DNA of 63,995 nt, counting the filler, from Stramenopiles sp. TOSAG23-2 (Eukaryota), in assembly GCA_900128395.1 (NCBI GenBank). It is 6 parts of 6 records of this genome, joined end to end, with 100 filler letters (N's around TTAATTAATTAA, not from the genome) between each part and the next. Parts side by side here need not be neighbours in the genome. Positions count along the whole stretch, not along the records: positions 11,011 to 21,872 come from LT649982.1; 5 more parts are not named here. One strand, given 5' to 3'. Shown here piece by piece: positions 10,911 to 62,034 of the stretch. The notes beneath the pieces are model-generated. The model did not search any database. It had not been told where the DNA came from and saw only the letters and a program-made list of their open reading frames with translations. Both the position numbers and the translations under genes were made by a program. Position 1 is the stretch's first letter, and each line of letters opens with the position of its first letter.

Positions 10911-11010
10911 NNNNNNNNNNNNNNNNNNNNNNNNNNNNNNNNNNNNNNNNNNNNTTAATTAATTAANNNNNNNNNNNNNNNNNNNNNNNNNNNNNNNNNN
11001 NNNNNNNNNN
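10911..11010. other. Artificial contig linker
   Basis: 44 N + TTAATTAATTAA (stops in all six frames) + 44 N. Confidence 0.98.
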
Positions 11011-12885
11011 ACTATCTAAATCATCATCGTCTTCACTATCATACCCATATATATTATCATTTAAATCATTAGTATTATTATTATTATTATTATTATTATT
11101 GCCACTAGTAATACCATTATTTGGTGAAGAAACTAATGTTAAATTTGATGGGACAGGTACTGCAGCTGCAATGGTAGATGAATTGATAATAATTGGATTG
11201 TTTACGTTGATATTGTTGTTATTATTGGTATTAACCGTAGTCGCATTTATATTATTGTTGTTCGTTCCACTTGCCATGTTACTACTATTATTATTACCAT
11301 TACCATTATCATCATCTTTATCCAATGTTTCACCATGTTCACGTTCCCAAATTTGCATTTCTGTTGACATTTCCGTATAAAATTCATTGAATTCACGTTC
11401 ACGTTCTAAATGTATACGATTACTACGTTTAATCCTAGAATTCGTTAAGATATCATCCGGTATATTACTACTAATTGGTAATGCTGCAATTGTTGCTGTA
11501 GTCATATTGTTACTACCATCACCACTCGACGACGATGCACCACTAGTAAGAGCAGCACGTCGATTCCCACCAGTACCTGAACCACCAATACCTGCAACTG
11601 CTAATGATAATAACGTACCACTTTCCACATTACTTAATAATAATTGTCGATTTTTTGCTTCCAACATTCTATTTCTAGTAAAACTTGGTGGGTCACATTC
11701 TTCTGGTAAATCAATCGTTTCAAATTCTTCTGGTGTTAACAATGCAGTAGGTGTTTGACTGAATTCACTTAAACGATTACGTAATGTTTGATCACATATC
11801 CGTGTCACACTTATAATGTCTTTTTGCGTTCGTTTAAAACCATGCATACCACTTGCTAAAAACAATGCCGCTGCACAAATACCAGCTGGTCTTCTACCAG
11901 TTTGTATCCAATCTTTTTTAAAACGTTTCACTAAACGCAATGCCGTCATTGCAACTTGATGTGTTTTTTCCCCGCCACCAAATTCCAATTTACTGCTAAA
12001 ACGATGTATGTACAATGTCGGTTCAATTAATGGCAAAGATAAATTCAATAAACGACAAAATTTTAAAAAACATGTACCTAATTCATATACATTCACTTGC
12101 AATGCATCACTGAAATCTATTAATAAATATGGTGATTTCTCTGTACGACATACGATATATAAACATGCAGCGACGACATGTGCAGTACGTCGTCCTTGTA
12201 CAAAATTACGTTGTACGGCTAATAAAAATAAACGATGGGCACTATCAACATAATGTTGCCCTAAACGTAATTTAGCTGCTAATTGTGCAATACGTTTCCG
12301 TCCATTATTAATAGTAATTTCTCTAGATTCTTTTGAATATGTAATACTACGATTTGACATACCAGATGTAAATGATTTTGTTGCAGTAGCAGCAACATAT
12401 TGACCAACAATTGAGGATGAACCACCACTTGATTCTGCAAATTGTACGGATGATACGATGGTATTTTCTTCAATCACCGTACCACATGCCATGCATACAG
12501 CATTTCCACTTGCATCATCACGGTCAATATTCGTAGAACCACATTTTGGGCATATTGTACCAGATTGTTGTTGGGATTGTTGTTGTGCACTTGCTGTTGT
12601 ATTGGATGATGTAGTTGTAGTTGATGATGATATACTTATCGGTATAGCAATATTTGTTTTTGTAGTAGTTGCTGTTGTTGATGCTGATGATGATATTATT
12701 GTTGGTATTGCTGCTATTGGTGCTTGTATGGATGATGGTGGTAATATGATATTGTTATTATTGGTGTTGGTGGTGTTGTTGCTTGTGCTTGGGGATAAAA
12801 TTTCGTTATTATTATTATTATCATCATTATTTTGTTCTAGATTTTTTTGTACTGACGGAGTCGATATGATGGTTGGGATACTCAT
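11011..12885 (-). CDS. BRF1: TFIIIB subunit Brf1 (TFIIB-related factor), 3'-truncated
   Basis: Zn ribbon CPKCGS...CMACG; cyclin repeats with NFVQGRR, ACLYIVCR, LLIDFSDALQVNVYELG, DWIQTGRRPAGICAAAL; ECDPPSF. Confidence 0.95.
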
Positions 12886-13375
12886 GTTTATATTGTTTGC
12901 AATACGTGTATTTGTTTGCCTTTTTCTTAATATGTAAGTGAACGTATTTGTTGTACGTGTGTATTTTTGTTTGTTTTTGCTTGCACTTCTTGGGAATAAT
13001 ATTATTCGATGTATATATTTTACTCCTAATTTTACTCCTAATTTTAGCTAAATGTTCAGTGATTTTGAGTGAATTTATTAAAAAAAAAAATTACAGTTTG
13101 GGGGAAAGGAAAAACGAGCCGCGTGGACAATAAATATTATATTATCGGGTGTGCAAGTATCCGATGATGTTCGGTATTTCAATTTTATGTATCTGTATAT
13201 ATCGATAATCTGTATAATTACACCAGGTCCATGTGTCCATGTCTCTCTGGTCTGGTGAACAGTTTAATTGTAATGTGTGTTTGTTTGTTGGGAGAGGAGA
13301 GAGGAGTGGCAGTTAAAAATAAGAATGAGGAGGGAGAGGATTATATAGGATATTGTAGTTGGTAGTATATAAATA

Positions 13376-13621
13376 TTAATATATTATATCTTCTGCCCAT
13401 ATCATCATCGATTTCACTTGTTGATACCCGTTTGATCCATCTATTTTATATTGTTTTATAGCTTTTAATTGTGATTTCATATTATCACTAAGTTGATTAT
13501 TACATAGGTTCAAGTAATCTAATGTATTGTTTGTTTTTAATACATCAATAATACTTTGTATTCCACTATCATCAGTAATATTATTATTATCTAGGGACAA
13601 TAACCATAATGTATTGTTTGT
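13376..13621 (-). pseudogene. Out-of-frame C-terminal continuation (two more LRRs plus cap) of the CHAT-helicase-LRR gene
   Basis: Reads TNNTLWLLSLDNNNITDDSGIQSIIDVLK TNNTLDYLNLCNNQLSDN.... Separated from the main ORF by a 14-bp duplication; removing it gives one 1526-aa ORF (17970..13376). Confidence 0.8.
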
Positions 13622-13636
13622 TATGTATTGTTTGTT
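13609..13636. repeat. Perfect 14-bp tandem duplication (ATGTATTGTTTGTT x2)
   Basis: 13609-13622 equals 13623-13636; it creates the TAA stop and the frameshift in the LRR array. Confidence 0.95.
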
Positions 13637-16600
13637 TTTAATACATCAATAATACTTTGTATTCCACTATCATCAGTAATATTATTATTCTGTAGGGACA
13701 ATACCTCTAATGTATTGTTTGTTTTTAATCCTTCACCAATACTTTGTACATCAGTAATATTATTAAAAGATAGCCACAATCTTGTTAATGTACTGTTTGT
13801 TTTTAACAATTCACCAATAGCTAATGCATCCTCATCCGTGAGATTCGTTCCACTCAAATTCACTTCTGTCTTTGTACCAATCTCCTGTTCCCATTTAATA
13901 TATGCAGCACTCTTTTTCTTGTCTACTGCATTGGTTTCATTTTTATTATTATCACTTCTTTGGTTATTTACATCATTTAAATCAATATTAACATCTTCTA
14001 AAGAAGTAAATAATAATTGATTCGATGGACCTATCATATTCTTGATGTCTTCTGGGATAGTATTTGTATTAAGAAAAGCTTGTTTTATTTTAATTACTTT
14101 AGCCAATGCTTTTCCACCAATGCTTTTCCGCGAATCGGAATGGATTATGATAGGCTCTTCGTTAACTTTTCCTCGTTTTGCATTGGGCTTTTTTATGGCT
14201 GTCTCGTTAGTATCTAAATCCTTGTAATCATTCTTCGCATTTTCATTTAAATTACTTTTTGATGGTATTTTTTCAATTTTTGTCAGCGATTGACTTTGCT
14301 TCTCATAAATCTTATTTCTCTCTGAATCTGGTATTTGCCTTTCATCCAATTCTGTAGTCCACATACTGTGATAAAGACCATATTGTACCGGTTTATCAAC
14401 TATGCCAACAAATAATTTTGCACGTGTAATAGCACGATATACAGATGCTTTCTTCCTATCTAATACCGGCTCTTCGATACCATCATCTATTGTCTCATCA
14501 AAGCCTACAATAATTGCTGCATCATATTCTAAACCATCTTGATTCGAAATTGTATCAACCACTATTTGTACTGATTTATGTACTAATTGAGGGAACATAC
14601 CAAACATTTTTTCTGCATTTACAATGTTAAACTTGTAACGATCATTTTCCCCATTTAATAAACTGCTAATTTGTTTAGAAAATTTAACAATTTGTAGATT
14701 TTCGTTATCATCAGGTAAAATTATTACAACATGGCCATCACTTAAACCATTCCATCCACCATCATCATTGTTGCTAGAGGTTTTAAAATGAATTAATGCA
14801 TCTACCGTTTTTAAAGCAAACTGTTTATATAAATCATTAGCTTTATCAGAATTGCTAATTAAAAATGGTTCAATGCGACTTCCGAATTTCTCAGAACATG
14901 ATGGACGATCTATGTTTTTTCTAAATAAATGCGATAACAAGGTAATTGCTTGTGTTGAACGTACAACATCACGAAGTTCAATTGTGAATACCTCTTCATT
15001 ACTTTCCAATGCACCCTTTATTGCATTATTAATCTCTCGTATTGCAGACGGTCCTTGATTATCATCGGAAAGTATTACACGTTGTTCTGCGTCTTCAAAA
15101 TGCCTTAATATTCGTCTCCATGTCTTATCATTGTTACGTACAATATGATGCGCTTCATCAATAACGACTAAATCATATTTCTTGATTGTTTCATCAATAG
15201 GTACAAATTTTAAATACACATTCATCTGATCGTCAATTTCAAGTGTTGCTTTTTGTGGATGCTCGCCTGTCTTTCTTGTGCAAAAATGTACTTGATTTAA
15301 AATCGATTCGGGATCATGTTGTACTCTATCAATATTATTATCTTCTTCCTTTTCTCCCTTGGTCTCATCATCATTGTGTTTAACTTTCCTACTTAGCATG
15401 CGTATTAATATCCATCGTATAAAAAAATAAGCAAATCCATTTTGTGTACATGCAAAAAGTATATTTGCATTTGGGTTTTCATTTAACATTTTACAAACAA
15501 AATGTAAGCCTAAAAATGTTTTACCCGTACCAGCAAATCCTTTTATATGAACACAACCGATGTTTTGTTTTTCGTTTATCGCAGTCGTATATTTTCTGTA
15601 TTTCTTTTTTTGTTCTTTTTTCAACTCATCTTGTGCTAATAATTTTAATTCGCAAATTTTCCGAAGCTTCATTATCATGTCAGATGATATATTTTGTACT
15701 AATACATCATTCAATTCCATTTCTTGTTTAATGTGGTCATCATTCAATCCCATTTCTAGTGCAATGCATCGTATTGCTATAATATTATCGTTTGCGTTTA
15801 AAATATCTACAATTTTCGAAAAGTTCTCTTTGCTACTGTCTATAAAATTGCGGAATTGTTTATAAAATATTTTATCATTGTCTGATACCTTGTTATTGGA
15901 TGTAACAGCACCTTTCAAGAGCAATTCTTTCACTCGTTCAATGTATATATTTTTAATTTCCGCGTTGTTTTGTTGAAAAAATGGATCTCCGCCTTGATGT
16001 TCCTTTGATAAATCAAAGATCGTATCATAAATCATCAGATTCTTTGCTTTCCAAATTTGCCATTTTTTTACCTTTAAACTTACAGATATTGTACTAAATT
16101 CAAAAGCATCTTTGGGTGGTTTCTGATTTACAAAAAGTTGATAATAAAAATCTACACTTAAAATTGGTGCAGCAATAGATGAAACTTTTGTTTTAAAACC
16201 ATACGAATATAAACCACCTCCATCAATAAAATATTGAACAATGTTAGAATTTTCAATAGCTGTTTCGCATGCACTCATCGTAAATAACGTGATGCCACTT
16301 TTGAGTAACATATTGATGAATAGTTTATAATCAATCCGTTCCAATGCCATGGGATTACTTTTAGTATCAATAAATGTAAGACCTAAAGGAACATCCCCTC
16401 CATCCAATTTTCCATGACCAATAAAGTGCACAAATCTATACACATTTGTTTGTATTTTGGTTTTAAAATCATCTACTGTACCTTGAAATATTTCAGCATC
16501 AGTTATGTTTTTGATTTTCTCGGCTTCTGCAATGCTCTCCTTAAAATCTACAGCAAGAAAAATTATCCCCTTTTCACCATTATATGACATGTTGGCAATA

Positions 16601-17970
16601 CGATGTTTCTCAATTTTACTGTTTTCTAATGTTTTAAGACGCGCAGTAAGTTTTTTAATATCATTGGCATTTTTTTGGACTTGATTCATCAATGTTTTAA
16701 TCTTTTTACATTCAATTGAAAACTGTTCAACATATTTCTTTTGCTCCTCTGTGAATTCCTGGAATATATCTTGCTGTTCTTTCAATTCTTTTATACATTG
16801 AAGATTTAATGTATTTAAAGCATTATTGCATACAATTAAATGTTTACCATTTTGCTCCCGATTTTTCATTTCTTCCTCAGAATTTACTGGACTACCATCA
16901 TGAAATGTTACTAATGGTATTCCTATTTTTTGGCCTAATTCCCATAATTGATCAGCCATTGGCCCGGCATCCATATCGCCAGTTAAATTGCCATATTCAT
17001 CAAGCCATTCATAAATATGTAATTCTAAATCTTCGGTCACTGATTTTAATATATTATTAGGACATGTTTCCATAATTAATTTAAAATTTGGATCGCTAGT
17101 AACTTTTAATTGACGTGCTTTTAATGTACCAAATTCACCATGGTTTGCTTTTATTTCCTCAAAATTATTAGAATCATTTATTAGTAAGTCGACCGGTGAA
17201 ACTATGTTATCAGTTGGAGCAGTACCAATTTCAGCTGCTTTAAATACTACTTTACTATTTTCATCCTGTGGATCCCGTTGGCGTTTTTTTTGTCGTATAA
17301 CTTTTCTTAATAGCTCTTGTTTTCGTTGTCGTTTCAATTTGATTGTAATTGAATGAGTATTTGAAGTGTGCCTTTGTCCTTTGAATATTTTGTTTTCCTC
17401 ATGTTTAGTAAGAACCACAGTAAAATCATCAAATTCTAGTTTTAATGGATTTAAGACTTTATTATTAGTTTTGATTGATTCTACGTTACTTTCATAGCTA
17501 CTTTTAAACCATAATTTAATTATTCCAAATTTTTGTGGATCTTCATTCCCTATCTGAATAACTATGCGATACTCAATAAATTCATTACTTCCCTTTTCTG
17601 TTTTGTTGTCCAGCCAATTAACATAAAAACTGCATCTTGAGTTTTCAATTTTATCGTTTGATCGATTTAGTATAAAATATTCATGTTCGTTATCTTCGAT
17701 ATGAGAAATGATATTTTTTGGACTATCTGTTTTTAGTTGAAACTTCAACATTCCATTATTTTTTATAATTTCGGGATATACTTTAATTTGTGTATAATTT
17801 GCATTATTATTATTATTGTTGTTGTTGTTGTTGTTGTTAGTATTGCTATTGCTACCGGTAGCATTATTAATGACGACACGATTGTCATTATTGTCATTGC
17901 CGTCGACGTCGTCGTAGTTATTGCTATTGTTGTTATTGTTGTGGGTACTATCCACATCCATATCACTCAT
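13621..17970 (-). CDS. Multidomain protein: unknown N-terminal region, coiled coil, CHAT (caspase-like) protease, Schlafen/DUF2075-like SF1 helicase, RI-type LRRs
   Basis: CHAT dyad FVHFIGHG / FTMSACET plus KVSSIAA..DFYYQL. Helicase motifs GFAGTGKT, LVVIDEAHH, LSDDNQ, LRDVVRS, VDTISNQDGLEYD, YRAITRAK. LRRs such as TNSTLTRLWLSFNNITD. Confidence 0.85.
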   Translation of the reverse strand: MSDMDVDSTHNNNNNSNNYDDVDGNDNNDNRVVINNATGSNSNTNNNNNNNNNNNNANYTQIKVYPEIIKNNGMLKFQLKTDSPKNIISHIEDNEHEYFILNRSNDKIENSRCSFYVNWLDNKTEKGSNEFIEYRIVIQIGNEDPQKFGIIKLWFKSSYESNVESIKTNNKVLNPLKLEFDDFTVVLTKHEENKIFKGQRHTSNTHSITIKLKRQRKQELLRKVIRQKKRQRDPQDENSKVVFKAAEIGTAPTDNIVSPVDLLINDSNNFEEIKANHGEFGTLKARQLKVTSDPNFKLIMETCPNNILKSVTEDLELHIYEWLDEYGNLTGDMDAGPMADQLWELGQKIGIPLVTFHDGSPVNSEEEMKNREQNGKHLIVCNNALNTLNLQCIKELKEQQDIFQEFTEEQKKYVEQFSIECKKIKTLMNQVQKNANDIKKLTARLKTLENSKIEKHRIANMSYNGEKGIIFLAVDFKESIAEAEKIKNITDAEIFQGTVDDFKTKIQTNVYRFVHFIGHGKLDGGDVPLGLTFIDTKSNPMALERIDYKLFINMLLKSGITLFTMSACETAIENSNIVQYFIDGGGLYSYGFKTKVSSIAAPILSVDFYYQLFVNQKPPKDAFEFSTISVSLKVKKWQIWKAKNLMIYDTIFDLSKEHQGGDPFFQQNNAEIKNIYIERVKELLLKGAVTSNNKVSDNDKIFYKQFRNFIDSSKENFSKIVDILNANDNIIAIRCIALEMGLNDDHIKQEMELNDVLVQNISSDMIMKLRKICELKLLAQDELKKEQKKKYRKYTTAINEKQNIGCVHIKGFAGTGKTFLGLHFVCKMLNENPNANILFACTQNGFAYFFIRWILIRMLSRKVKHNDDETKGEKEEDNNIDRVQHDPESILNQVHFCTRKTGEHPQKATLEIDDQMNVYLKFVPIDETIKKYDLVVIDEAHHIVRNNDKTWRRILRHFEDAEQRVILSDDNQGPSAIREINNAIKGALESNEEVFTIELRDVVRSTQAITLLSHLFRKNIDRPSCSEKFGSRIEPFLISNSDKANDLYKQFALKTVDALIHFKTSSNNDDGGWNGLSDGHVVIILPDDNENLQIVKFSKQISSLLNGENDRYKFNIVNAEKMFGMFPQLVHKSVQIVVDTISNQDGLEYDAAIIVGFDETIDDGIEEPVLDRKKASVYRAITRAKLFVGIVDKPVQYGLYHSMWTTELDERQIPDSERNKIYEKQSQSLTKIEKIPSKSNLNENAKNDYKDLDTNETAIKKPNAKRGKVNEEPIIIHSDSRKSIGGKALAKVIKIKQAFLNTNTIPEDIKNMIGPSNQLLFTSLEDVNIDLNDVNNQRSDNNKNETNAVDKKKSAAYIKWEQEIGTKTEVNLSGTNLTDEDALAIGELLKTNSTLTRLWLSFNNITDVQSIGEGLKTNNTLEVLSLQNNNITDDSGIQSIIDVLKTNNT

Positions 17971-18666
17971 TGTTTAATTTTGCTTTATGAAAACTTAAAA
18001 ACTGTACCAACTATACTAAGTATACAATTTAATAAATCTAATAAATATGGAATTATTCTTTAACGCGCGTTGTACGGTTATCAGTATATGGCCTGTCGTT
18101 ATCTGTGTACGTGTATTATTATCAATTGTATTTGTGTTTTTCCTATGTTTACTTATTCGGTTCAAAAGAGATTGACTTTCCCAAAAGTATAATACCAAGT
18201 TTTCCTGTCTATATGGATATATATATTTATTATATTTTATATATTATGGGTACAGGTAGAGCAACTATAAATAACTCTAGCCTGTGCAGTGCTAACGTGC
18301 TAGTATTTTATAAAAAAAATGCAAAAAAAAAGAGGGCTTGCAAATTTTTTTTGTTTGCAAAATAAAAAAAATATTTGCATTTTCACAATGGAAATAGTAT
18401 TAAAATGCAAATATTTAATCTAAATATTCAATCATAAATCCAAATTAGCTGATCCTGAACTGGAGTTCATTTCAATTAACATATAAACAACATCACGCAC
18501 TGGATATCAAAAATGACTAAAAGGACATTAATCACATAAATAACCATATATATGCATATATAAGCAAAAGAAGAAGCGGCGAGGAAAAGACGAAGTGCTA
18601 AAAACCAAAACAAAAAAAGAGGAACAAAGAAAGAAAAAGAATTAAAAAAGAAAAGAAGATTACGTA

Positions 18667-21872: not shown

Positions 21873-21972
21873 NNNNNNNNNNNNNNNNNNNNNNNNNNNN
21901 NNNNNNNNNNNNNNNNTTAATTAATTAANNNNNNNNNNNNNNNNNNNNNNNNNNNNNNNNNNNNNNNNNNNN
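21873..21972. other. Artificial contig linker
   Basis: N44-TTAATTAATTAA-N44. Confidence 0.98.
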
Positions 21973-32826: not shown

Positions 32827-32926
32827 NNNNNNNNNNNNNNNNNNNNNNNNNNNNNNNNNNNNNNNNNNNNTTAATTAATTAANNNNNNNNNNNNNNNNNN
32901 NNNNNNNNNNNNNNNNNNNNNNNNNN
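32827..32926. other. Artificial contig linker
   Basis: N44-TTAATTAATTAA-N44. Confidence 0.98.
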
Positions 32927-43772: not shown

Positions 43773-43872
43773 NNNNNNNNNNNNNNNNNNNNNNNNNNNN
43801 NNNNNNNNNNNNNNNNTTAATTAATTAANNNNNNNNNNNNNNNNNNNNNNNNNNNNNNNNNNNNNNNNNNNN
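43773..43872. other. Artificial contig linker
   Basis: N44-TTAATTAATTAA-N44. Confidence 0.98.
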
Positions 43873-54712: not shown

Positions 54713-54812
54713 NNNNNNNNNNNNNNNNNNNNNNNNNNNNNNNNNNNNNNNNNNNNTTAATTAATTAANNNNNNNNNNNNNNNNNNNNNNNNNNNNNNNN
54801 NNNNNNNNNNNN
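54713..54812. other. Artificial contig linker
   Basis: N44-TTAATTAATTAA-N44. Confidence 0.98.
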
Positions 54813-55057: not shown

Positions 55058-55342
55058 CTTAAATTATATAGTATTCTATAATATATGTTATTTTTTATTA
55101 ATCAATTACTGTTATGTATATATATGCTTACTCCTTTACTTTTTACATTATTATTATTCTATAATTTTATATTATTATAAGAAATGTGTGGTCTTATTGC
55201 TATTATTACTACAGGGAGAAGAAGAAAATAAATTAATTAATAATAATAATATAGTTATATATGTATTCAATATGTTTCATCATTCCGAAAATATATCGCC
55301 ATCATATATAATATATACAACAATGTATTCATCAGCATCATC

Positions 55343-57799
55343 ATGCATAAACGACGAGAAAAAAAACGAAATGATCGAGATGCAAACTTAGAAACTGCAT
55401 TGGAGCATTTGGATGGTATTTTCAACTCATCTGTAAAAAATATTAGTTTTAAATTGCCAAGTAATAGTAAGAATAAACCAATCAAATGGGAGTCACTACC
55501 AAAAGCTTTAGATCCTATGTCGCAATTAACAAAATTAACAAAGCAAGGTAGGGCACTACGAAAACGACAACAATTGCAGTCATTAATGAATGCTATAAAC
55601 TCTGTTCTAAAGCCTGGTGATCTTATATGCGATTATGGTAGTGGTCAAGGTCACCTTGGTTTATTAATTGCTTATCTCTATCCAACTTGTCGTATTATTA
55701 TATTAGACCATAATGAAGAAAAACTAAATATGGCTACTTTGCGAATTAATGAAATTGAAGAAGAAATTTTCAACAGATCTAATAATACTAATAACACCAA
55801 TGATAAAAATGCAAAGACAACCATTAAAAGTTTTAAAGAAAGAATCGAATTATGTAATGCAATGGATGATATTAAATATCGGCCAATTGATCTAGGTGTT
55901 GGACTTCATTGTTGTGGAAATTTCACTGATATTGCAATAAAACATTGTAAAGAAATTAAAGCAAATTTTTGTATCTCTCCATGTTGTTATGGGCAGGTAG
56001 ATTGTACTGGTGCTAATAATAATAATATAATTACAGATACAAATTCAATTTATTGGAAATCAGTCATACGAGGTGCTGATTTTAATATTGGTGATGCAAA
56101 TCTTTTTAATCCATTGGAAGATGAGAAATTTAAACAAACGAAAAAATGTATGAATTTTGTTGATATTGTATTACGTTCACAACATCTTGTTGGTGAAAAA
56201 CAATATGATTATCATATTACAGTTCAATCATTAATGCCATTATCATGCTCGCCAAAAAATAATGTTATAGTAGGAATTTTAAATTGTAAATTATACCCCG
56301 ATAAATATATATTTGATGATGATAAAAAATTATCATATATGTTTCCAAATGTAAAAACATTTGATGAAAAAAAAAATAATGTTTTAAAATCATTACTTGA
56401 TAATAAATTAATCGATGATAATTTCATTAATAATCAGCAACAGAATCATAATAATAATAACAACATGGTGTCATATCAAACACCAACACCATTATATCGA
56501 TTAAGATGTCGATTTGGATTTGGAAAAAATAAAGAATCAACCACAACACCTACTGATTTAGTACATTCGAAAGAATGTATTTGTGGATGCGCCCCATCAG
56601 GATTGCCTTTGTCTATGTTTGAAATGGCAAAATTACGCAAACAAAAAAGAGAAGAAGAACGAAAGAAGATTGCAGATTATCATAACAGACAACAAAATCA
56701 ACAAATAGATTTATTACAAATGTTTACAACGGGTACTACTCGGCAAAATAATAATAATAATAAACCAAAACCTTCGACTAAATTATCATTTTCTCATTAT
56801 GTTTTTACAAAGGATGGATCTAAATATTACATAAACGACTATCCTGTAGCTGCATGTGCAATAGATGTTTTAATGAAATTAGTTGTAAAAGAGATAGTAA
56901 ATTACCCAGCTATTTATAACAATATTGAAGCGGTTAATTATTTATCTTCATTACATGGTGATATGTTAGTAACATTTATTTATAGCAAACCAATTTCATC
57001 AGAAGAATGGAAAAAAGATGCATTGTATTTTCAACGTAAATTAAGTTTAAAATTGACAAATTTTAAGAATTCAAAATTTGTAGGTTTGATTGGACGGAGT
57101 AAAGGTAAATGCATTTTACTAGAAGATAACAGGAATTATGTGAATGAACAATTACATTTAAATGATGGAAGAATTTTACGATATAAACAATACGAAGGAT
57201 CATTTTCAAATCCAAATGGCCGTGTAAATGAAAAATGCCTTGATTGGTTATGCCAACGTGTCGATATTATCATCAATACTAATAGTATCGATGGAAAAAT
57301 CTGTTTATTGGAAATGTTTTGCGGTGGTGGCAACCATACAATTGCGTTGGCGGGAAAATTTGATAAAATTTATGCAGTAGAGTTGGATAATAATTTATGT
57401 AAAGCAGTTTTAGAAAATTGTAACCGAAATAATATTCATAATGTGAAAATTATTCAAGGTAAAAGTGAATATTTTTGGAATCATGACATGCATAATAATA
57501 ATAATAATAATAATAATGAAACCAATGATATAAATTATACAAATGTAATTGATTCGATTTATTTTAATACTATATTGGTAGATCCACCTCGAAAGGGCCT
57601 GGATGGAAATACATTAAATTCATGTAAATGTTTTAATAATATTTTGTACATTTCATGTAGTGCAACGAGTTTAGAAAGGGATTTAATCATATTAAAAGAA
57701 ACCCATGAGATTGTTGGAATTGCATTTTTTGATCATTTTCATCGTACAAATCATATTGAAACTGCTGTTCATATGAGGAAAATCGAAAAATCATTGTAG
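55343..57799 (+). CDS. Dual methyltransferase: GSTCD-like (Methyltransf_32) domain fused to a TrmA-type RNA m5U methyltransferase (copy 1)
   Basis: GSTCD-like RALRKRQQL, DYGSGQGHLG, LHCCG..TD, PCCYG, SCSPKNN. TrmA-like YRLRCRF, FSNPN, LEMFCGGGN, VDPPRKGL, YISC (catalytic Cys), HIE. Confidence 0.85.
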   Translation: MHKRREKKRNDRDANLETALEHLDGIFNSSVKNISFKLPSNSKNKPIKWESLPKALDPMSQLTKLTKQGRALRKRQQLQSLMNAINSVLKPGDLICDYGSGQGHLGLLIAYLYPTCRIIILDHNEEKLNMATLRINEIEEEIFNRSNNTNNTNDKNAKTTIKSFKERIELCNAMDDIKYRPIDLGVGLHCCGNFTDIAIKHCKEIKANFCISPCCYGQVDCTGANNNNIITDTNSIYWKSVIRGADFNIGDANLFNPLEDEKFKQTKKCMNFVDIVLRSQHLVGEKQYDYHITVQSLMPLSCSPKNNVIVGILNCKLYPDKYIFDDDKKLSYMFPNVKTFDEKKNNVLKSLLDNKLIDDNFINNQQQNHNNNNNMVSYQTPTPLYRLRCRFGFGKNKESTTTPTDLVHSKECICGCAPSGLPLSMFEMAKLRKQKREEERKKIADYHNRQQNQQIDLLQMFTTGTTRQNNNNNKPKPSTKLSFSHYVFTKDGSKYYINDYPVAACAIDVLMKLVVKEIVNYPAIYNNIEAVNYLSSLHGDMLVTFIYSKPISSEEWKKDALYFQRKLSLKLTNFKNSKFVGLIGRSKGKCILLEDNRNYVNEQLHLNDGRILRYKQYEGSFSNPNGRVNEKCLDWLCQRVDIIINTNSIDGKICLLEMFCGGGNHTIALAGKFDKIYAVELDNNLCKAVLENCNRNNIHNVKIIQGKSEYFWNHDMHNNNNNNNNETNDINYTNVIDSIYFNTILVDPPRKGLDGNTLNSCKCFNNILYISCSATSLERDLIILKETHEIVGIAFFDHFHRTNHIETAVHMRKIEKSL

Positions 57800-58186: not shown

Positions 58187-58351
58187 TTACAACGAGGCAT
58201 TTTTTCCATTTTTTTCTATTATCTTTCCAGCAGTATCATCAATGACCACATTCCAATCTATTATAGCAGAAACAAAACGATGAAATGCTAAAGTATGTGT
58301 AACCCTTCCACTTTCACCCGATGTGGCAGCTCCAATAATAAGGGATGCATA
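58187..58351 (-). pseudogene. Duplicated 3' remnant of the APH/choline-kinase-like gene
   Basis: Matches 62369-62536 with several substitutions and a 3-bp indel. Confidence 0.85.
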
Positions 58352-59292
58352 AGTTCTTCCTCAATATGATTAATAATATCATCAGCATTACCAATTAGCT
58401 CATAATCAAATTGTTTCACAGCATTTTTTATAGATACATGTTGTTTATTAATTAATATTTGTGGAATGTGACTAAAGTAATTGATGATATTTTTCATTGG
58501 GCTGACTTTTAAAGATGTACCTAATACAAGTAGTAAATCAGCTTTCTTTTGATCCAATGTTAAACTTTTTGCTATGTTGGATTGTATTTTTTCACCAAAA
58601 AATGTTATTCCAGGTTTCAAGGGATATTCACCACATTTTAAGCACATTGGCACTCCATCGTATGGATTATTTGTTTTTGTCATCGTTGAAGAAGATGATG
58701 ATGAATTATTATTATTTGCCAATATTAATTGTTCAATAAATGTTTCACGATTTTTTATTTTAAAATTACATTTTTTTGAATTTAAACATTTTGCACCAGA
58801 GGAAAAAGAACCATGGCAATATCGCAATGATTTTTGTTTTACACCCGCTTTTTCTTCAAGGCCATCGATATTTTGTGTATAACAACGCAATATTTTCTTA
58901 TTTTGATCTAATTTGGCTAGAAATTTATGTGTTTTGGATGGATTTTTATCTTCTTTCATGTCTGTATTAACTAGCATTTTATACATGATTTTATAAAATG
59001 GTTGTGGATCATATGTAAAATATTCTATATCAAAAACTTCTTGCGGATCTGATAAGTTTAGATTTAATTCTTCCACCATGGAATATATACCATTAGGTGA
59101 TCGAAAATCTGGAATTCCTACAGAAACACTAATACCTGCACCAATTAAACATACAATATTTTTCGCATTTTTTATTAATTCAATGTATTCTTTATTATTT
59201 TTTCTTCTCATTTTTGAATTATTATTATTACTATTATCACTATTATTTACATCATGATCGATTAGTCGTTTACGTTTCTTTGTATCATTCAT
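58288..59292 (-). CDS. Class I sirtuin (NAD+-dependent deacylase), copy 2, with a chimeric C-terminus
   Basis: [29 protein letters not shown], Zn ligands CLNSKKC and CLKC, KPGITFFGE, GTSLKV. The last 20 aa come from the kinase remnant read in another frame. Confidence 0.9.
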   Translation of the reverse strand: MNDTKKRKRLIDHDVNNSDNSNNNNSKMRRKNNKEYIELIKNAKNIVCLIGAGISVSVGIPDFRSPNGIYSMVEELNLNLSDPQEVFDIEYFTYDPQPFYKIMYKMLVNTDMKEDKNPSKTHKFLAKLDQNKKILRCYTQNIDGLEEKAGVKQKSLRYCHGSFSSGAKCLNSKKCNFKIKNRETFIEQLILANNNNSSSSSSTMTKTNNPYDGVPMCLKCGEYPLKPGITFFGEKIQSNIAKSLTLDQKKADLLLVLGTSLKVSPMKNIINYFSHIPQILINKQHVSIKNAVKQFDYELIGNADDIINHIEEELMHPLLLELPHRVKVEGLHIL

Positions 59293-59577
59293 CTTAAATT
59301 ATATAGTATTCTATAATATATGTTATTTTTTATTAATCAATTACTGTTATGTATATATATGCTTACTCCTTTACTTTTTACATTATTATTATTCTATAAT
59401 TTTATATTATTATAAGAAATGTGTGGTCTTATTGCTATTATTACTACAGGGAGAAGAAGAAAATAAATTAATTAATAATAATAATATAGTTATATATGTA
59501 TTCAATATGTTTCATCATTCCGAAAATATATCGCCATCATATATAATATATACAACAATGTATTCATCAGCATCATC

Positions 59578-62034
59578 ATGCATAAACGACGAGAAAAAAA
59601 ACGAAATGATCGAGATGCAAACTTAGAAACTGCATTGGAGCATTTGGATGGTATTTTCAACTCATCTGTAAAAAATATTAATTTTAAATTGCCAAGTAGT
59701 AGTAATAATAAACCAATCAAATGGGAGTCACTACCAAAAGCTTTAGATCCTATGTCGCAATTAACAAAGTTAACAAAGCAAGGTAGGGCACTACGAAAAC
59801 GACAACAATTGCAGTCATTAATGAATGCTATAAACTCTGTTCTAAAGCCTGGTGATCTTATATGCGATTATGGTAGTGGTCAAGGTCACCTTGGTTTATT
59901 AATTGCTTATCTCTATCCAACTTGTCGTATTATTATATTAGACCATAATGAAGAAAAACTAAATATGGCTACTTTGCGAATTAATGAAATTGAAGAAGAA
60001 ATTTTCAACAGATCTAATAATACTAATAACACCAATGATAAAAATGCAAAGACAACCATTAAAAGTTTTAAAGAAAGAATCGAATTATGTAATGCAATGG
60101 ATGATATTAAATATCGGCCAATTGATCTAGGCGTTGGACTTCATTGTTGTGGAAATTTCACTGATATTGCAATAAAACATTGTAAAGAAATTAAAGCAAA
60201 TTTTTGTATCTCTCCATGTTGTTATGGGCAGGTAGATTGTACTGGTGCTAATAATAATAATATAATTACAGATACAAATTCAATTTATTGGAAATCGGTC
60301 ATACGAGGTGCTGATTTTAATATTGGTGATGCAAATCTTTTTAATCCATTGGAAGATGAGAAATTTAAACAAACGAAAAAATGTATGAATTTTGTTGATA
60401 TTGTATTACGTTCACAACATCTTGTTGGTGAAAAACAATATGATTATCATATTACAGTTCAATCATTAATGCCATTATCATGCTCGCCAAAAAATAATGT
60501 TATAGTAGGAATTTTAAATTGTAAATTATACCCCGATAAATATATATTTGATGATGATAAAAAATTATCATATATGTTTCCAAATGTAAAAACATTTGAT
60601 GAAAAAAAAAATAATGTTTTAAAATCATTACTTGATAATAAATTAATCGATGATAATTTCATTAATAATCAGCAACAGAATCATAATAATAATAACAACA
60701 TGGTGTCATATCAAACACCAACACCATTATATCGATTAAGATGTCGATTTGGATTTGGAAAAAATAAAGAATCAACCACAACACCTACTGATTTAGTACA
60801 TTCGAAAGAATGTATTTGTGGATGCGCCCCATCAGGATTGCCTTTGTCTATGTTTGAAATGGCAAAATTACGCAAACAAAAAAGAGAAGAAGAACGAAAG
60901 AAGATTGCAAATTATCATAACAGACAACAAAATCAACAAATAGATTTATTACAAATGTTTACAACGGGTACTACTCGGCAAAATAATAATAATAATAAAC
61001 CAAAACCTGCGACTAAATTATCATTTTCTCATTATGTTTTTACAAAGGATGGATCTAAATATTACATAAACGACTATCCTGTAGCTGCATGTGCAATAGA
61101 TGTTTTAATGAAATTAGTTGTAAAAGAGATAGTAAATTACCCAGCTATTTATAACAATATTGAAGCGGTTAATTATTTATCTTCATTACATGGTGATATG
61201 TTAGTAACATTTATTTATAGCAAACCAATTTCATCAGAAGAATGGAAAAAAGATGCATTGTATTTTCAACGTAAATTAAGTTTAAAATTGACAAATTTTA
61301 AGAATTCAAAATTTGTAGGTTTGATTGGACGGAGTAAAGGTAAATGCATTTTACTAGAAGATAACAGGAATTATGTGAATGAACAATTACATTTAAATGA
61401 TGGAAGAATTTTACGATATAAACAATACGAAGGATCATTTTCAAATCCAAATGGCCGTGTAAATGAAAAATGCCTTGATTGGTTATGCCAACGTGTCGAT
61501 ATTATCATCAATACTAATAGTATCGATGGAAAAATCTGTTTATTGGAAATGTTTTGCGGTGGTGGCAACCATACAATTGCGTTGGCGGGAAAATTTGACA
61601 AAATTTATGCAGTAGAGTTGGATAATAATTTATGTAAAGCAGTTTTAGAAAATTGTAACCGAAATAATATTCATAATGTGAAAATTATTCAAGGTAAAAG
61701 TGAATATTTTTGGAATCATGACATGCATAATAATAATAATAATAATAATAATGAAACCAATGATATAAATTATACAAATGTAATTGATTCGATTTATTTT
61801 AATACTATATTGGTAGATCCACCTCGAAAGGGCCTGGATGGAAATACATTAAATTCATGTAAATGTTTTAATAATATTTTGTACATTTCATGTAGTGCAA
61901 CGAGTCTAGAAAGGGATTTAATCATATTAAAAGAAACCCATGAGATTGTTGGAATTGCATTTTTTGATCATTTTCATCGTACAAATCATATTGAAACTGC
62001 TGTTCATATGAGGAAAATCGAAAAATCATTTTAG
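59578..62034 (+). CDS. GSTCD-like + TrmA-type dual methyltransferase (copy 2)
   Basis: Same 818-aa ORF as 55343..57799 with 6 amino-acid differences. Confidence 0.85.
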   Translation: MHKRREKKRNDRDANLETALEHLDGIFNSSVKNINFKLPSSSNNKPIKWESLPKALDPMSQLTKLTKQGRALRKRQQLQSLMNAINSVLKPGDLICDYGSGQGHLGLLIAYLYPTCRIIILDHNEEKLNMATLRINEIEEEIFNRSNNTNNTNDKNAKTTIKSFKERIELCNAMDDIKYRPIDLGVGLHCCGNFTDIAIKHCKEIKANFCISPCCYGQVDCTGANNNNIITDTNSIYWKSVIRGADFNIGDANLFNPLEDEKFKQTKKCMNFVDIVLRSQHLVGEKQYDYHITVQSLMPLSCSPKNNVIVGILNCKLYPDKYIFDDDKKLSYMFPNVKTFDEKKNNVLKSLLDNKLIDDNFINNQQQNHNNNNNMVSYQTPTPLYRLRCRFGFGKNKESTTTPTDLVHSKECICGCAPSGLPLSMFEMAKLRKQKREEERKKIANYHNRQQNQQIDLLQMFTTGTTRQNNNNNKPKPATKLSFSHYVFTKDGSKYYINDYPVAACAIDVLMKLVVKEIVNYPAIYNNIEAVNYLSSLHGDMLVTFIYSKPISSEEWKKDALYFQRKLSLKLTNFKNSKFVGLIGRSKGKCILLEDNRNYVNEQLHLNDGRILRYKQYEGSFSNPNGRVNEKCLDWLCQRVDIIINTNSIDGKICLLEMFCGGGNHTIALAGKFDKIYAVELDNNLCKAVLENCNRNNIHNVKIIQGKSEYFWNHDMHNNNNNNNNETNDINYTNVIDSIYFNTILVDPPRKGLDGNTLNSCKCFNNILYISCSATSLERDLIILKETHEIVGIAFFDHFHRTNHIETAVHMRKIEKSF

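Follow-up and report, generated by a model that had tools for sequence, protein, structure and literature searches.

The window gene and its leucine-rich repeats

The window, a stretch of 63,995 nucleotides (nt) of Stramenopiles sp. TOSAG23-2 joined from six records of its genome assembly (G000), carries on its minus strand a gene that ends in a cassette of leucine-rich repeats (LRRs). All parts of the gene given below lie on that strand. Its open reading frame of 1450 amino acids (aa; positions 13621-17973, first Met at 17970) encodes a CHAT-like protease, a superfamily 1/2-type helicase and the LRR cassette, and it ends early, at the TAA of a short duplication. The CHAT (caspase-like) domain is partial (aa 496-573; 16255-16488) and its match falls under the Pfam cut-off (E 8e-4), while that of the paralogue L077 lies over it (E 6e-6); the His-Gly and Ala-Cys motifs were read by eye. 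Also read by eye were the Walker A motif, the DEAH-type Walker B motif and a C-terminal motif VI-like stretch of the helicase-like P-loop NTPase (14400-15627; ResIII match at aa 783-962, E 5e-10). The gene was matched by ResIII/AAA/DEAD-type helicase models and not by those for NACHT or NB-ARC, so that by domain content it is no NLR.

The cassette starts with an N-cap (13801-13917) of the commonest type, and continues with one 26-aa unit (unit 1, 13723-13800) and a 29-aa unit of the penultimate type (unit A, 13636-13722, with variable "x" codons at 13707-13702, 13698-13696 and 13692-13687). Then follow 14 extra bases (13622-13635), a direct duplication that brings a stop and a frameshift and is probably an assembly join, a second 29-aa unit (unit B, 13535-13621) and a terminal unit with the C-cap, a last hypervariable strand and the stop (13376-13534). 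Beyond the stop lies a non-coding 3′ tail shared with other members of the family (13340-13375), composed of an AT-rich run and a 17-nt core (13369-13353).

In LRR proteins generally, it is the x residues that line the concave side, where ligands bind. The original prediction held that units A (13722-13636) and B (13621-13535) are identical except at such residues, and direct comparison confirms this: 82 of 87 nt agree, and the five differences (13707, 13706, 13704, 13692 and 13690) all lie in x codons, namely unit codons 6 (GAG/TGG), 7 (GTA/TTA) and 11 (CAG/GAT), none being synonymous. Were differences spread uniformly, all five would fall within the five x codons (15 nt) with a probability of 8e-5. 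The x residues of the four units were also given correctly (TR-W-SF, EV-S-QN, WL-S-DN, DY-N-CN). The tandem itself, however, is probably not a real in-frame pair. A point absent from the original prediction is that A and B sit in different frames, B sharing that of the terminal unit, with a 14-bp direct duplication (13609-13636) between them; its 14 added nt create the TAA at 13623-13621 and a frameshift, and the 1450-aa frame stops after unit A. Nor is the closeness of A and B exceptional: when units of this type were paired across contigs, 91 of the 1741 pairs had no more than 5 nt different, and for both A and B a nearer counterpart lies on a different contig (3 and 4 differences, respectively).

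A family of genes with a common cassette

The window region matches at least 76 places in G000, in which patterns for the C-cap and the unit framework have 108 and 318 matches (controls, 0) and those for two types of N-cap have 39 and 16. Judged from sequence, these matches are best explained by a family of about 100 putatively intracellular, receptor-like genes with one common LRR cassette, the window holding the 3′ end of one member. The cassette opens with an N-cap, continues through a varying number of 26-aa units to a single 29-aa unit, and closes with the terminal unit, which bears the C-cap, and a short non-coding tail. Within open frames, each unit of 78 or 87 nt adjoins the next directly, an arrangement other than one LRR per exon. 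Array lengths vary and assemblies break inside arrays; in the subset of loci examined, most units belong to capped gene arrays and few are non-coding remnants. The exact C-cap is found at 50 loci of other assemblies, and the same framework and spectrum of x residues recur at these loci and in 99 of the 120 proteins that a database search listed. Viral contigs gave no match to the exact C-cap pattern, and a viral origin, or viral copies, was rejected on that count.

In the structural model of the member P0012 the cassette is a confident LRR solenoid, with a predicted local distance difference test score (pLDDT) above 90 in the repeats, and its strands span x7-L8-x9 of every unit as well as the variable last residues. 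Among the fold matches are LRRs of Roco proteins, internalin, NLRP1 and NOD2, and an Atlas search with a homologue returned solely unnamed or generic LRR clusters.

The cassette is located 3′ of unrelated effector and signalling domains. A scan of 37 frames together with P0001 and P0002, many of them with no named N-terminal domain, identified as partners TIR-kinase, kinase-TIR, kinase, MLKL-kinase, NB-ARC with a winged helix domain (WHD), SAP-U-box-ankyrin and ankyrin, and further CHAT-, TIR- or S74-helicase, an XK-related domain and a SidE-type phosphodiesterase. NB-ARC was matched at a single examined locus, L025. The helicase-LRR proteins (window 13621-17973; L077, L032, L192, L193, L205, L130, L135, P0001 and P0002) have CHAT or TIR as N-terminal effector, and several carry a segment resembling the endosialidase chaperone (Peptidase_S74); by their predicted domains, this is an NLR-like layout on a non-STAND motor.

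Other members differ in what precedes the cassette. L190 (2578-4275, plus strand) joins an MLKL N-terminal domain (MLKL_N, E 7e-14), a kinase and the cassette in a single frame, a necroptosis-like architecture, and L203 (2-2248, minus strand) has an N-terminal SidE-type phosphodiesterase domain (E 2e-36). At L108 (2345-4048, plus strand), L016 and L140 older, divergent LRRs lie upstream of a standard cassette at the 3′ end, L108 having the XK-related domain. A large subfamily (L008, L027, L037, L059, L111 and P0004-P0056), which dominates the database matches, uses the second N-cap type and has a short helical N-terminal region that looks F-box-like by eye and has no Pfam match.

Codon variation among the units

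The unit analysis covered 290 units, 180 of them of 26 aa, from 90 loci on 61 contigs, and so took in part of the 318 framework matches. Among 178 complete 26-aa units, the entropies of codons 6, 7, 9, 11 and 12 are 2.1, 3.5, 3.1, 3.4 and 1.8 bits, respectively, those of L8 and N13 are 0, and those of codons 1, 3, 23 and 24 are modest (0.8-1.6 bits), the remainder being almost fixed. Constancy extends to silent sites within the variable strand: in 289 units L8 is TTG in 287 and L10 is CTA in 280, including all 58 of the 29-aa type. By pairwise counts, 49 distinct 29-aa units have a nonsynonymous difference (pN) of 0.49 and a synonymous difference (pS) of 0.17 in x codons, hence a pN/pS of 2.9, and a pS of 0.027 in the framework; for 160 distinct 26-aa units the x-codon values are 0.49 and 0.27. 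Even variation across positions together with normal synonymous divergence, the outcome that the original prediction had named as fatal to it, was looked for genome-wide, and the units depart from it on both counts.

The x codons themselves have a regular form. At x9 the third base is C in 263 of the 272 codons where C is possible, and at x11 it is T in 253 of 262; the exceptions follow the residue, Trp, Glu and Gln codons using A or G. No stop occurs in the 289 units of G000, although bases varying independently would have produced about 48. The 159 distinct units include 144 distinct sets of x codons. No linkage was detected between x7 and x9 or between x9 and x11, which lie 6 nt apart (z 0.5 and 0.6). 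Of the 36 position pairs, those of neighbouring codons are linked (z 2.8-3.9), as are 6-24, 7-11 and 1-24, and linkage always amounts to 10% of the entropy or less.

Putative orthologues and paralogues

Thirteen putative orthologous loci were paired by their 3′ flanks, with one pair per locus counted, and substitutions in these flanks number 160 in 9891 nt (1.6%). The x residues of the 13 pairs differ at 62 of 79 positions (one of them a stop), compared with 76% for pairs of paralogues; framework residues differ at 22 of 297 (paralogues, 11.5%), and silent framework differences affect 3 of 275 same-residue codons (paralogues, 1.6%). The five x codons of a unit and the x positions of the last strand are close to saturated with differences, both among paralogues and among putative alleles. 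On these sequences, alleles of one locus appear as divergent at the predicted binding face as unrelated paralogues, so turnover would be fast enough to track in population reads. The window locus pairs with L131 (95.8% over 1501 flank columns), from which it differs in the last strand; in the pair L006/L114 the last strand is identical. A seawater metagenome contains pieces that match the window locus, and a related version of the gene in runs X2 and X3 has 80 differences over 13746-16000 and departs from it at the x9 codon of unit 1 (13774).

Paralogues provide a second comparison. Among four helicase-LRR genes, silent change affects 18-50% of same-residue codons in the N-terminal part, against 9% (17/190) in the framework of the 5′ cassette. 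Between the window gene and L079 the counts are 76 of 177 and 0 of 41, respectively, and the contrast is weaker in pairs with L077 (4/40 in the cassette versus 18% in the N-terminal part). Homogenisation of the cassette is younger than the gene duplications, as concerted evolution entails.

The 3′ tail and the bias towards the 3′ end

The core of the tail (13369-13353) has 111 matches in G000 (control, 5), and the tail follows 91 of 124 C-caps (55 of 74 in G000). For 35 of 134 tails there is no C-cap within 200 nt. Sorted by eye, six of these have 5′-truncated cassette remnants of 34-199 nt (L144, L148, L149, L157, L175 and L178), about 13 are tail-only and about 9 are chance-like; the remainder are displaced, lie at contig edges or belong to another repeat. 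At L145 and L146 the core lies within a different dispersed repeat with no LRR upstream. Of a further 20 N-cap loci, L196 alone clearly represents an internal cassette without a 3′ end, 17 others running off their contigs and being uninformative, and C-caps (108) exceed the two N-cap types (39 + 16). In 18 long arrays, synonymous departures are fewer in the last three units (7/421) than upstream (27/548; p 0.007, with units that are not independent), and one subfamily, represented by 24 complete arrays, also has its least variation at x in the first unit. These biases suggest, at the level of sequence comparison, that exchange is anchored at the 3′ end; for the conservation of the tail as such, a regulatory element of the 3′ untranslated region (UTR) remains a simple alternative.

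The fixed 3′ end with variable 5′ truncation (six remnants and about 13 tail-only loci) recalls non-LTR retroposed (SINE-like) elements, and deletion would explain it too. Classic retroposition was rejected: 17 junctions showed no target-site duplication above background, the tail has no stable hairpin (-1.8 kcal/mol), and none of eight reverse-transcriptase (RT) loci recognised by RVT_1 matches in the incomplete assembly has a tail within roughly 1.5 kb. Nor is the tail followed by regular poly(A). Those eight matches (L161-L168) are mostly fragments; L168, a frame of 1126 aa, is presumably telomerase-like, and the others we take, by eye, to be DIRS, gypsy or non-LTR pieces. The 3′ flank of the tail-only locus L156 is shared with the degenerate L149 (96%) and the full L115 (85%), and the older 3′ flank of the window locus is shared with L010 and L072 (74-78%), which indicates duplication and decay at the DNA level. 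An analysis of how far the tail extends in the 3′ direction was too noisy in this AT-rich DNA and was not used.

The tandem of units A and B

The A/B tandem is, on balance, better explained by an assembly join that brought together two versions of the penultimate-type unit than by a real duplication. The family plan has a single 29-aa unit ahead of the terminal unit, and two in succession occur in none of the 61 proteins with such a unit among the 99 family proteins. In the examined arrays of G000 they occur twice, at the window locus and as an in-frame identical pair on contig C653. All 17 contigs that end inside an array stop at the first x codon or no more than 23 nt before it, and the first piece of the window locus ends at this same point; other broken junctions (C1493 and C653) show an identical unit on both sides. 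Against a join weighs the rate of frameshifts at unit junctions, 14 of 221 in G000 and 0 of 57 in other assemblies, which is not a significant difference (p 0.08), the count missing breaks visible in L092, L118, L136 and L137. No listed metagenome piece (contigs only) bridges the junction at 13609-13636, which proves nothing either way. Exact block duplications inside and outside genes (L017/L018 on C1658, L021, L023 and L030) are consistent with scaffolding artefacts in G000. Artefact probably explains the A/B tandem; it does not explain the genome-wide pattern.

Origin of the diversity

The repertoire is probably the product of family-wide conversion combined with diversifying selection on the x residues. 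All loci would often undergo ectopic gene conversion or unequal exchange with one another, which would turn the units into one pool, fed by ordinary point mutations; short-tract exchange would recombine x residues and reset the framework, most strongly at the 3′ end and including the non-coding tail, while selection at the protein level would retain new residues of the binding face. To judge from the partner domains, the LRR may bind non-self ligands that change rapidly (proteins of viruses, parasites or prey), and the ligand-bound LRR would then switch on the N-terminal domain, in the window gene the CHAT protease by way of the helicase-type motor. Repeat exchange with diversifying selection at concave-face residues had been proposed in the original prediction, and the 289 units and the putative orthologous loci uphold it.

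Several points weigh against conversion and selection. In x codons of the 26-aa units pN/pS is merely 1.8, with a framework pS of 0.095, and pN/pS is here a pairwise count on saturated sites with no codon model. At the 3′ units synonymous diversity is 1-2%, lower than might be expected from drift alone in hundreds of copies, and the shortfall may call for a recent sweep, biased conversion or a template. Orthology was based on flank similarity alone, and recent segmental duplicates may be included; only 79 x codons were comparable, mostly from the last strand. Because arrays are error-prone in assembly (besides the 14 frameshifted junctions of G000, 16 of the 221 are irregular in frame), unit order and number are unreliable. 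Finally, TAA stands at x7 in 4 of 91 units of other assemblies (p 0.003 versus G000); it could be a consensus artefact or reflect fresh, unpurged variants or recombinants. The four loci (L094, L101, L130 and L134) each have Tyr, the commonest residue, at x9, which fits an artefact of column-wise consensus.

A dedicated 3′-anchored mechanism might supplement conversion and selection rather than replace them, selection still choosing the residues, although we regard it as rather doubtful. The tail would act as a cis element, for reverse-transcription priming or the start of recombination, with copies or conversion tracts running 5′-ward that rewrite existing cassettes and graft the cassette onto new genes. 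The frequency of the tail after C-caps (91/124, and 111 matches versus a control of 5), the six 5′-truncated remnants as opposed to one clear 3′-less cassette, the excess of C-caps over N-caps, the older LRRs upstream of a standard 3′ end (L016, L108 and L140) and the fewer synonymous departures in the last three units all fit it. However, there is no target-site duplication above background, stable hairpin or regular poly(A), none of the eight RT loci has a tail nearby, the flanks of L156/L149/L115 and window/L010/L072 fit DNA duplication and decay, and purifying selection on a 3′ UTR regulatory element would conserve the tail as well. Carried further, the cassette would be a programmed diversification module of a free-living protist, with the tail guiding RNA-templated or nick-initiated conversion that renews the binding face of about 100 receptor genes from the common pool and carries the sensor to new effector genes, a proposal that is tentative and on present evidence unlikely. 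In this reading the NNC/NNT form of three x codons would allow positions 1 and 2 to recombine with no stop ever arising. If true, such a module would be a heritable, combinatorial, immune-like repertoire with no need of introns, donor locus or mutator.

The alternative raised by the original prediction, targeted mutagenesis of the x codons, has very little probability. Diversity-generating retroelements (DGRs) vary codon positions 1 and 2 through AAC/AAT templates, and in the cassette, too, variation at x9, x11 and x12 is confined to these positions and x codons are almost unlinked; the four TAA codons at x7 could be listed beside them and were not used as evidence of mechanism. Adenine randomisation of the DGR kind, a deaminase or a regional mutator should nevertheless also mark silent sites, and silent A, T, C and G sites in or beside the variable strand (L8 and L10) are spared, x9 has almost no C-to-T change, third-base changes follow the residue needed, and the 289 units have no stop. 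In the incomplete assembly, moreover, neither a template repeat nor an RT locus adjoining a cassette tail came to light. Since silent sites are unmarked, a base-specific or regional mutator is unsupported, and DGR or deaminase-type mutagenesis was rejected on the silent-site counts, framework silent adenines being unchanged. Among the loci examined, no donor-cassette locus of the lamprey type was seen. Hardly credible at all is that most of the pattern is an assembly artefact, in which collapsed repeats and pooled cells mimic a uniform framework and mosaic x codons. Broken junctions are indeed frequent, contigs end just before the first x codon, and there are duplicated blocks such as those of C1658. 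Yet framework and x spectrum recur at the 50 loci of other assemblies and in the 99 listed proteins, and the codons are intact, with 0 stops where about 48 are expected. Sites only 6 nt from each other fall inside a single assembly k-mer, and assembly does not normally recombine them.

Comparison with known systems

The closest likeness is to the WD40 repeats of the NWD genes of Podospora anserina (het-d, het-e) and other fungal NLR repeats of high internal conservation, for which excerpts of two papers likewise describe unit exchange within and between genes, a near-identical framework with few diversifying surface codons flanking conserved ones, and varied N-terminal effectors (PMC1805685, PMC4986451). 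The cassette family shares several marks of HET-type repeats: its units are highly identical within and between genes, their homogenisation is younger than the gene duplications, and a few surface codons have a nonsynonymous excess in pairwise counts. It differs in using LRRs instead of WD, ANK or TPR repeats, no LRR having been found in fungal NLRs according to the part of the survey at hand (PMC4986451), and in its approximately 100 loci, compared with 10 genes and 69 units in the available excerpts on Podospora NWD. Unlike the latter, it also shares caps and a non-coding tail and mostly has no STAND NTPase.

Among stramenopiles, the Ectocarpus LRR family has positively selected concave-face residues that are shuffled among loci; there, in the portion of the report available, each LRR is an exon and shuffling is intron-mediated (PMC3341825), whereas here the arrays lack introns and their framework is almost uniform in DNA. 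None of the cassette genes examined showed a ROCO domain. The 90-bp-exon LRR genes of Tetrahymena are another massive protist family fused to domains such as kinases, for which the accessible part of the paper proposes ectopic recombination, possibly with retrotransposition (PMC6564038). Unlike them, the present family has no exon-intron units, and no retroelement was found beside the cassette.

Two further systems offer partial likenesses. Lamprey variable lymphocyte receptors (VLRs) are extracellular and are assembled somatically in one incomplete gene from flanking donor cassettes. They resemble the cassette in having caps, variable LRR modules and a hypervariable concave face, and differ in that many complete genes here share the pool, with no evident signal peptide (no formal test was made). 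Trypanosome variant surface glycoproteins (VSGs), also encoded by a large gene family, have a short conserved 3′ UTR motif close to where conversion ends on the 3′ side, and serve as a surface coat expressed from a single site; the cassette proteins are unrelated to them. No publication on this LRR-cassette family was found in the literature searched, outside which most subscription papers and supplements fell.

With this family, the HET-type recognition repertoire known from fungi would gain an LRR-based counterpart in a marine protist that is uncultured, with about ten times the gene number, and a single sensor cassette would serve outputs through kinase, TIR, MLKL, NB-ARC, ubiquitin ligase and protease-helicase. 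It thereby bears on the question of variable immune-like recognition in single-celled grazers, and it represents a natural library of predicted LRR binders on a single scaffold. This analysis adds the shared non-coding 3′ tail, the 5′-truncated orphan ends and the tighter homogenisation towards the 3′ end, and the tail offers a concrete handle on the mechanism of exchange.

Neighbouring features of the window

Downstream of the LRR gene, and outside the system, lies BRF1 (the 90-kDa subunit of TFIIIB; 11011-13047, minus strand), which served as an anchor of orthology and lineage. Its named matches are mostly diatoms and Parmales (55-58%), with a haptophyte (60%), the closest relatives reaching 88-91%, and by these matches the host may tentatively be called a "stramenopile-like", AT-rich eukaryote. 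The locus lies on contig C1904. The spacers of the window (10911-11010, 21873-21972, 32827-32926, 43773-43872 and 54713-54812) each consist of two runs of 44 N around 12 bases. Elsewhere in the window, two near-identical frames of 849 aa (55250-57796 and 59485-62031) flank a frame that looks sirtuin-like by eye (58291-59298), either a duplication or an assembly repeat.

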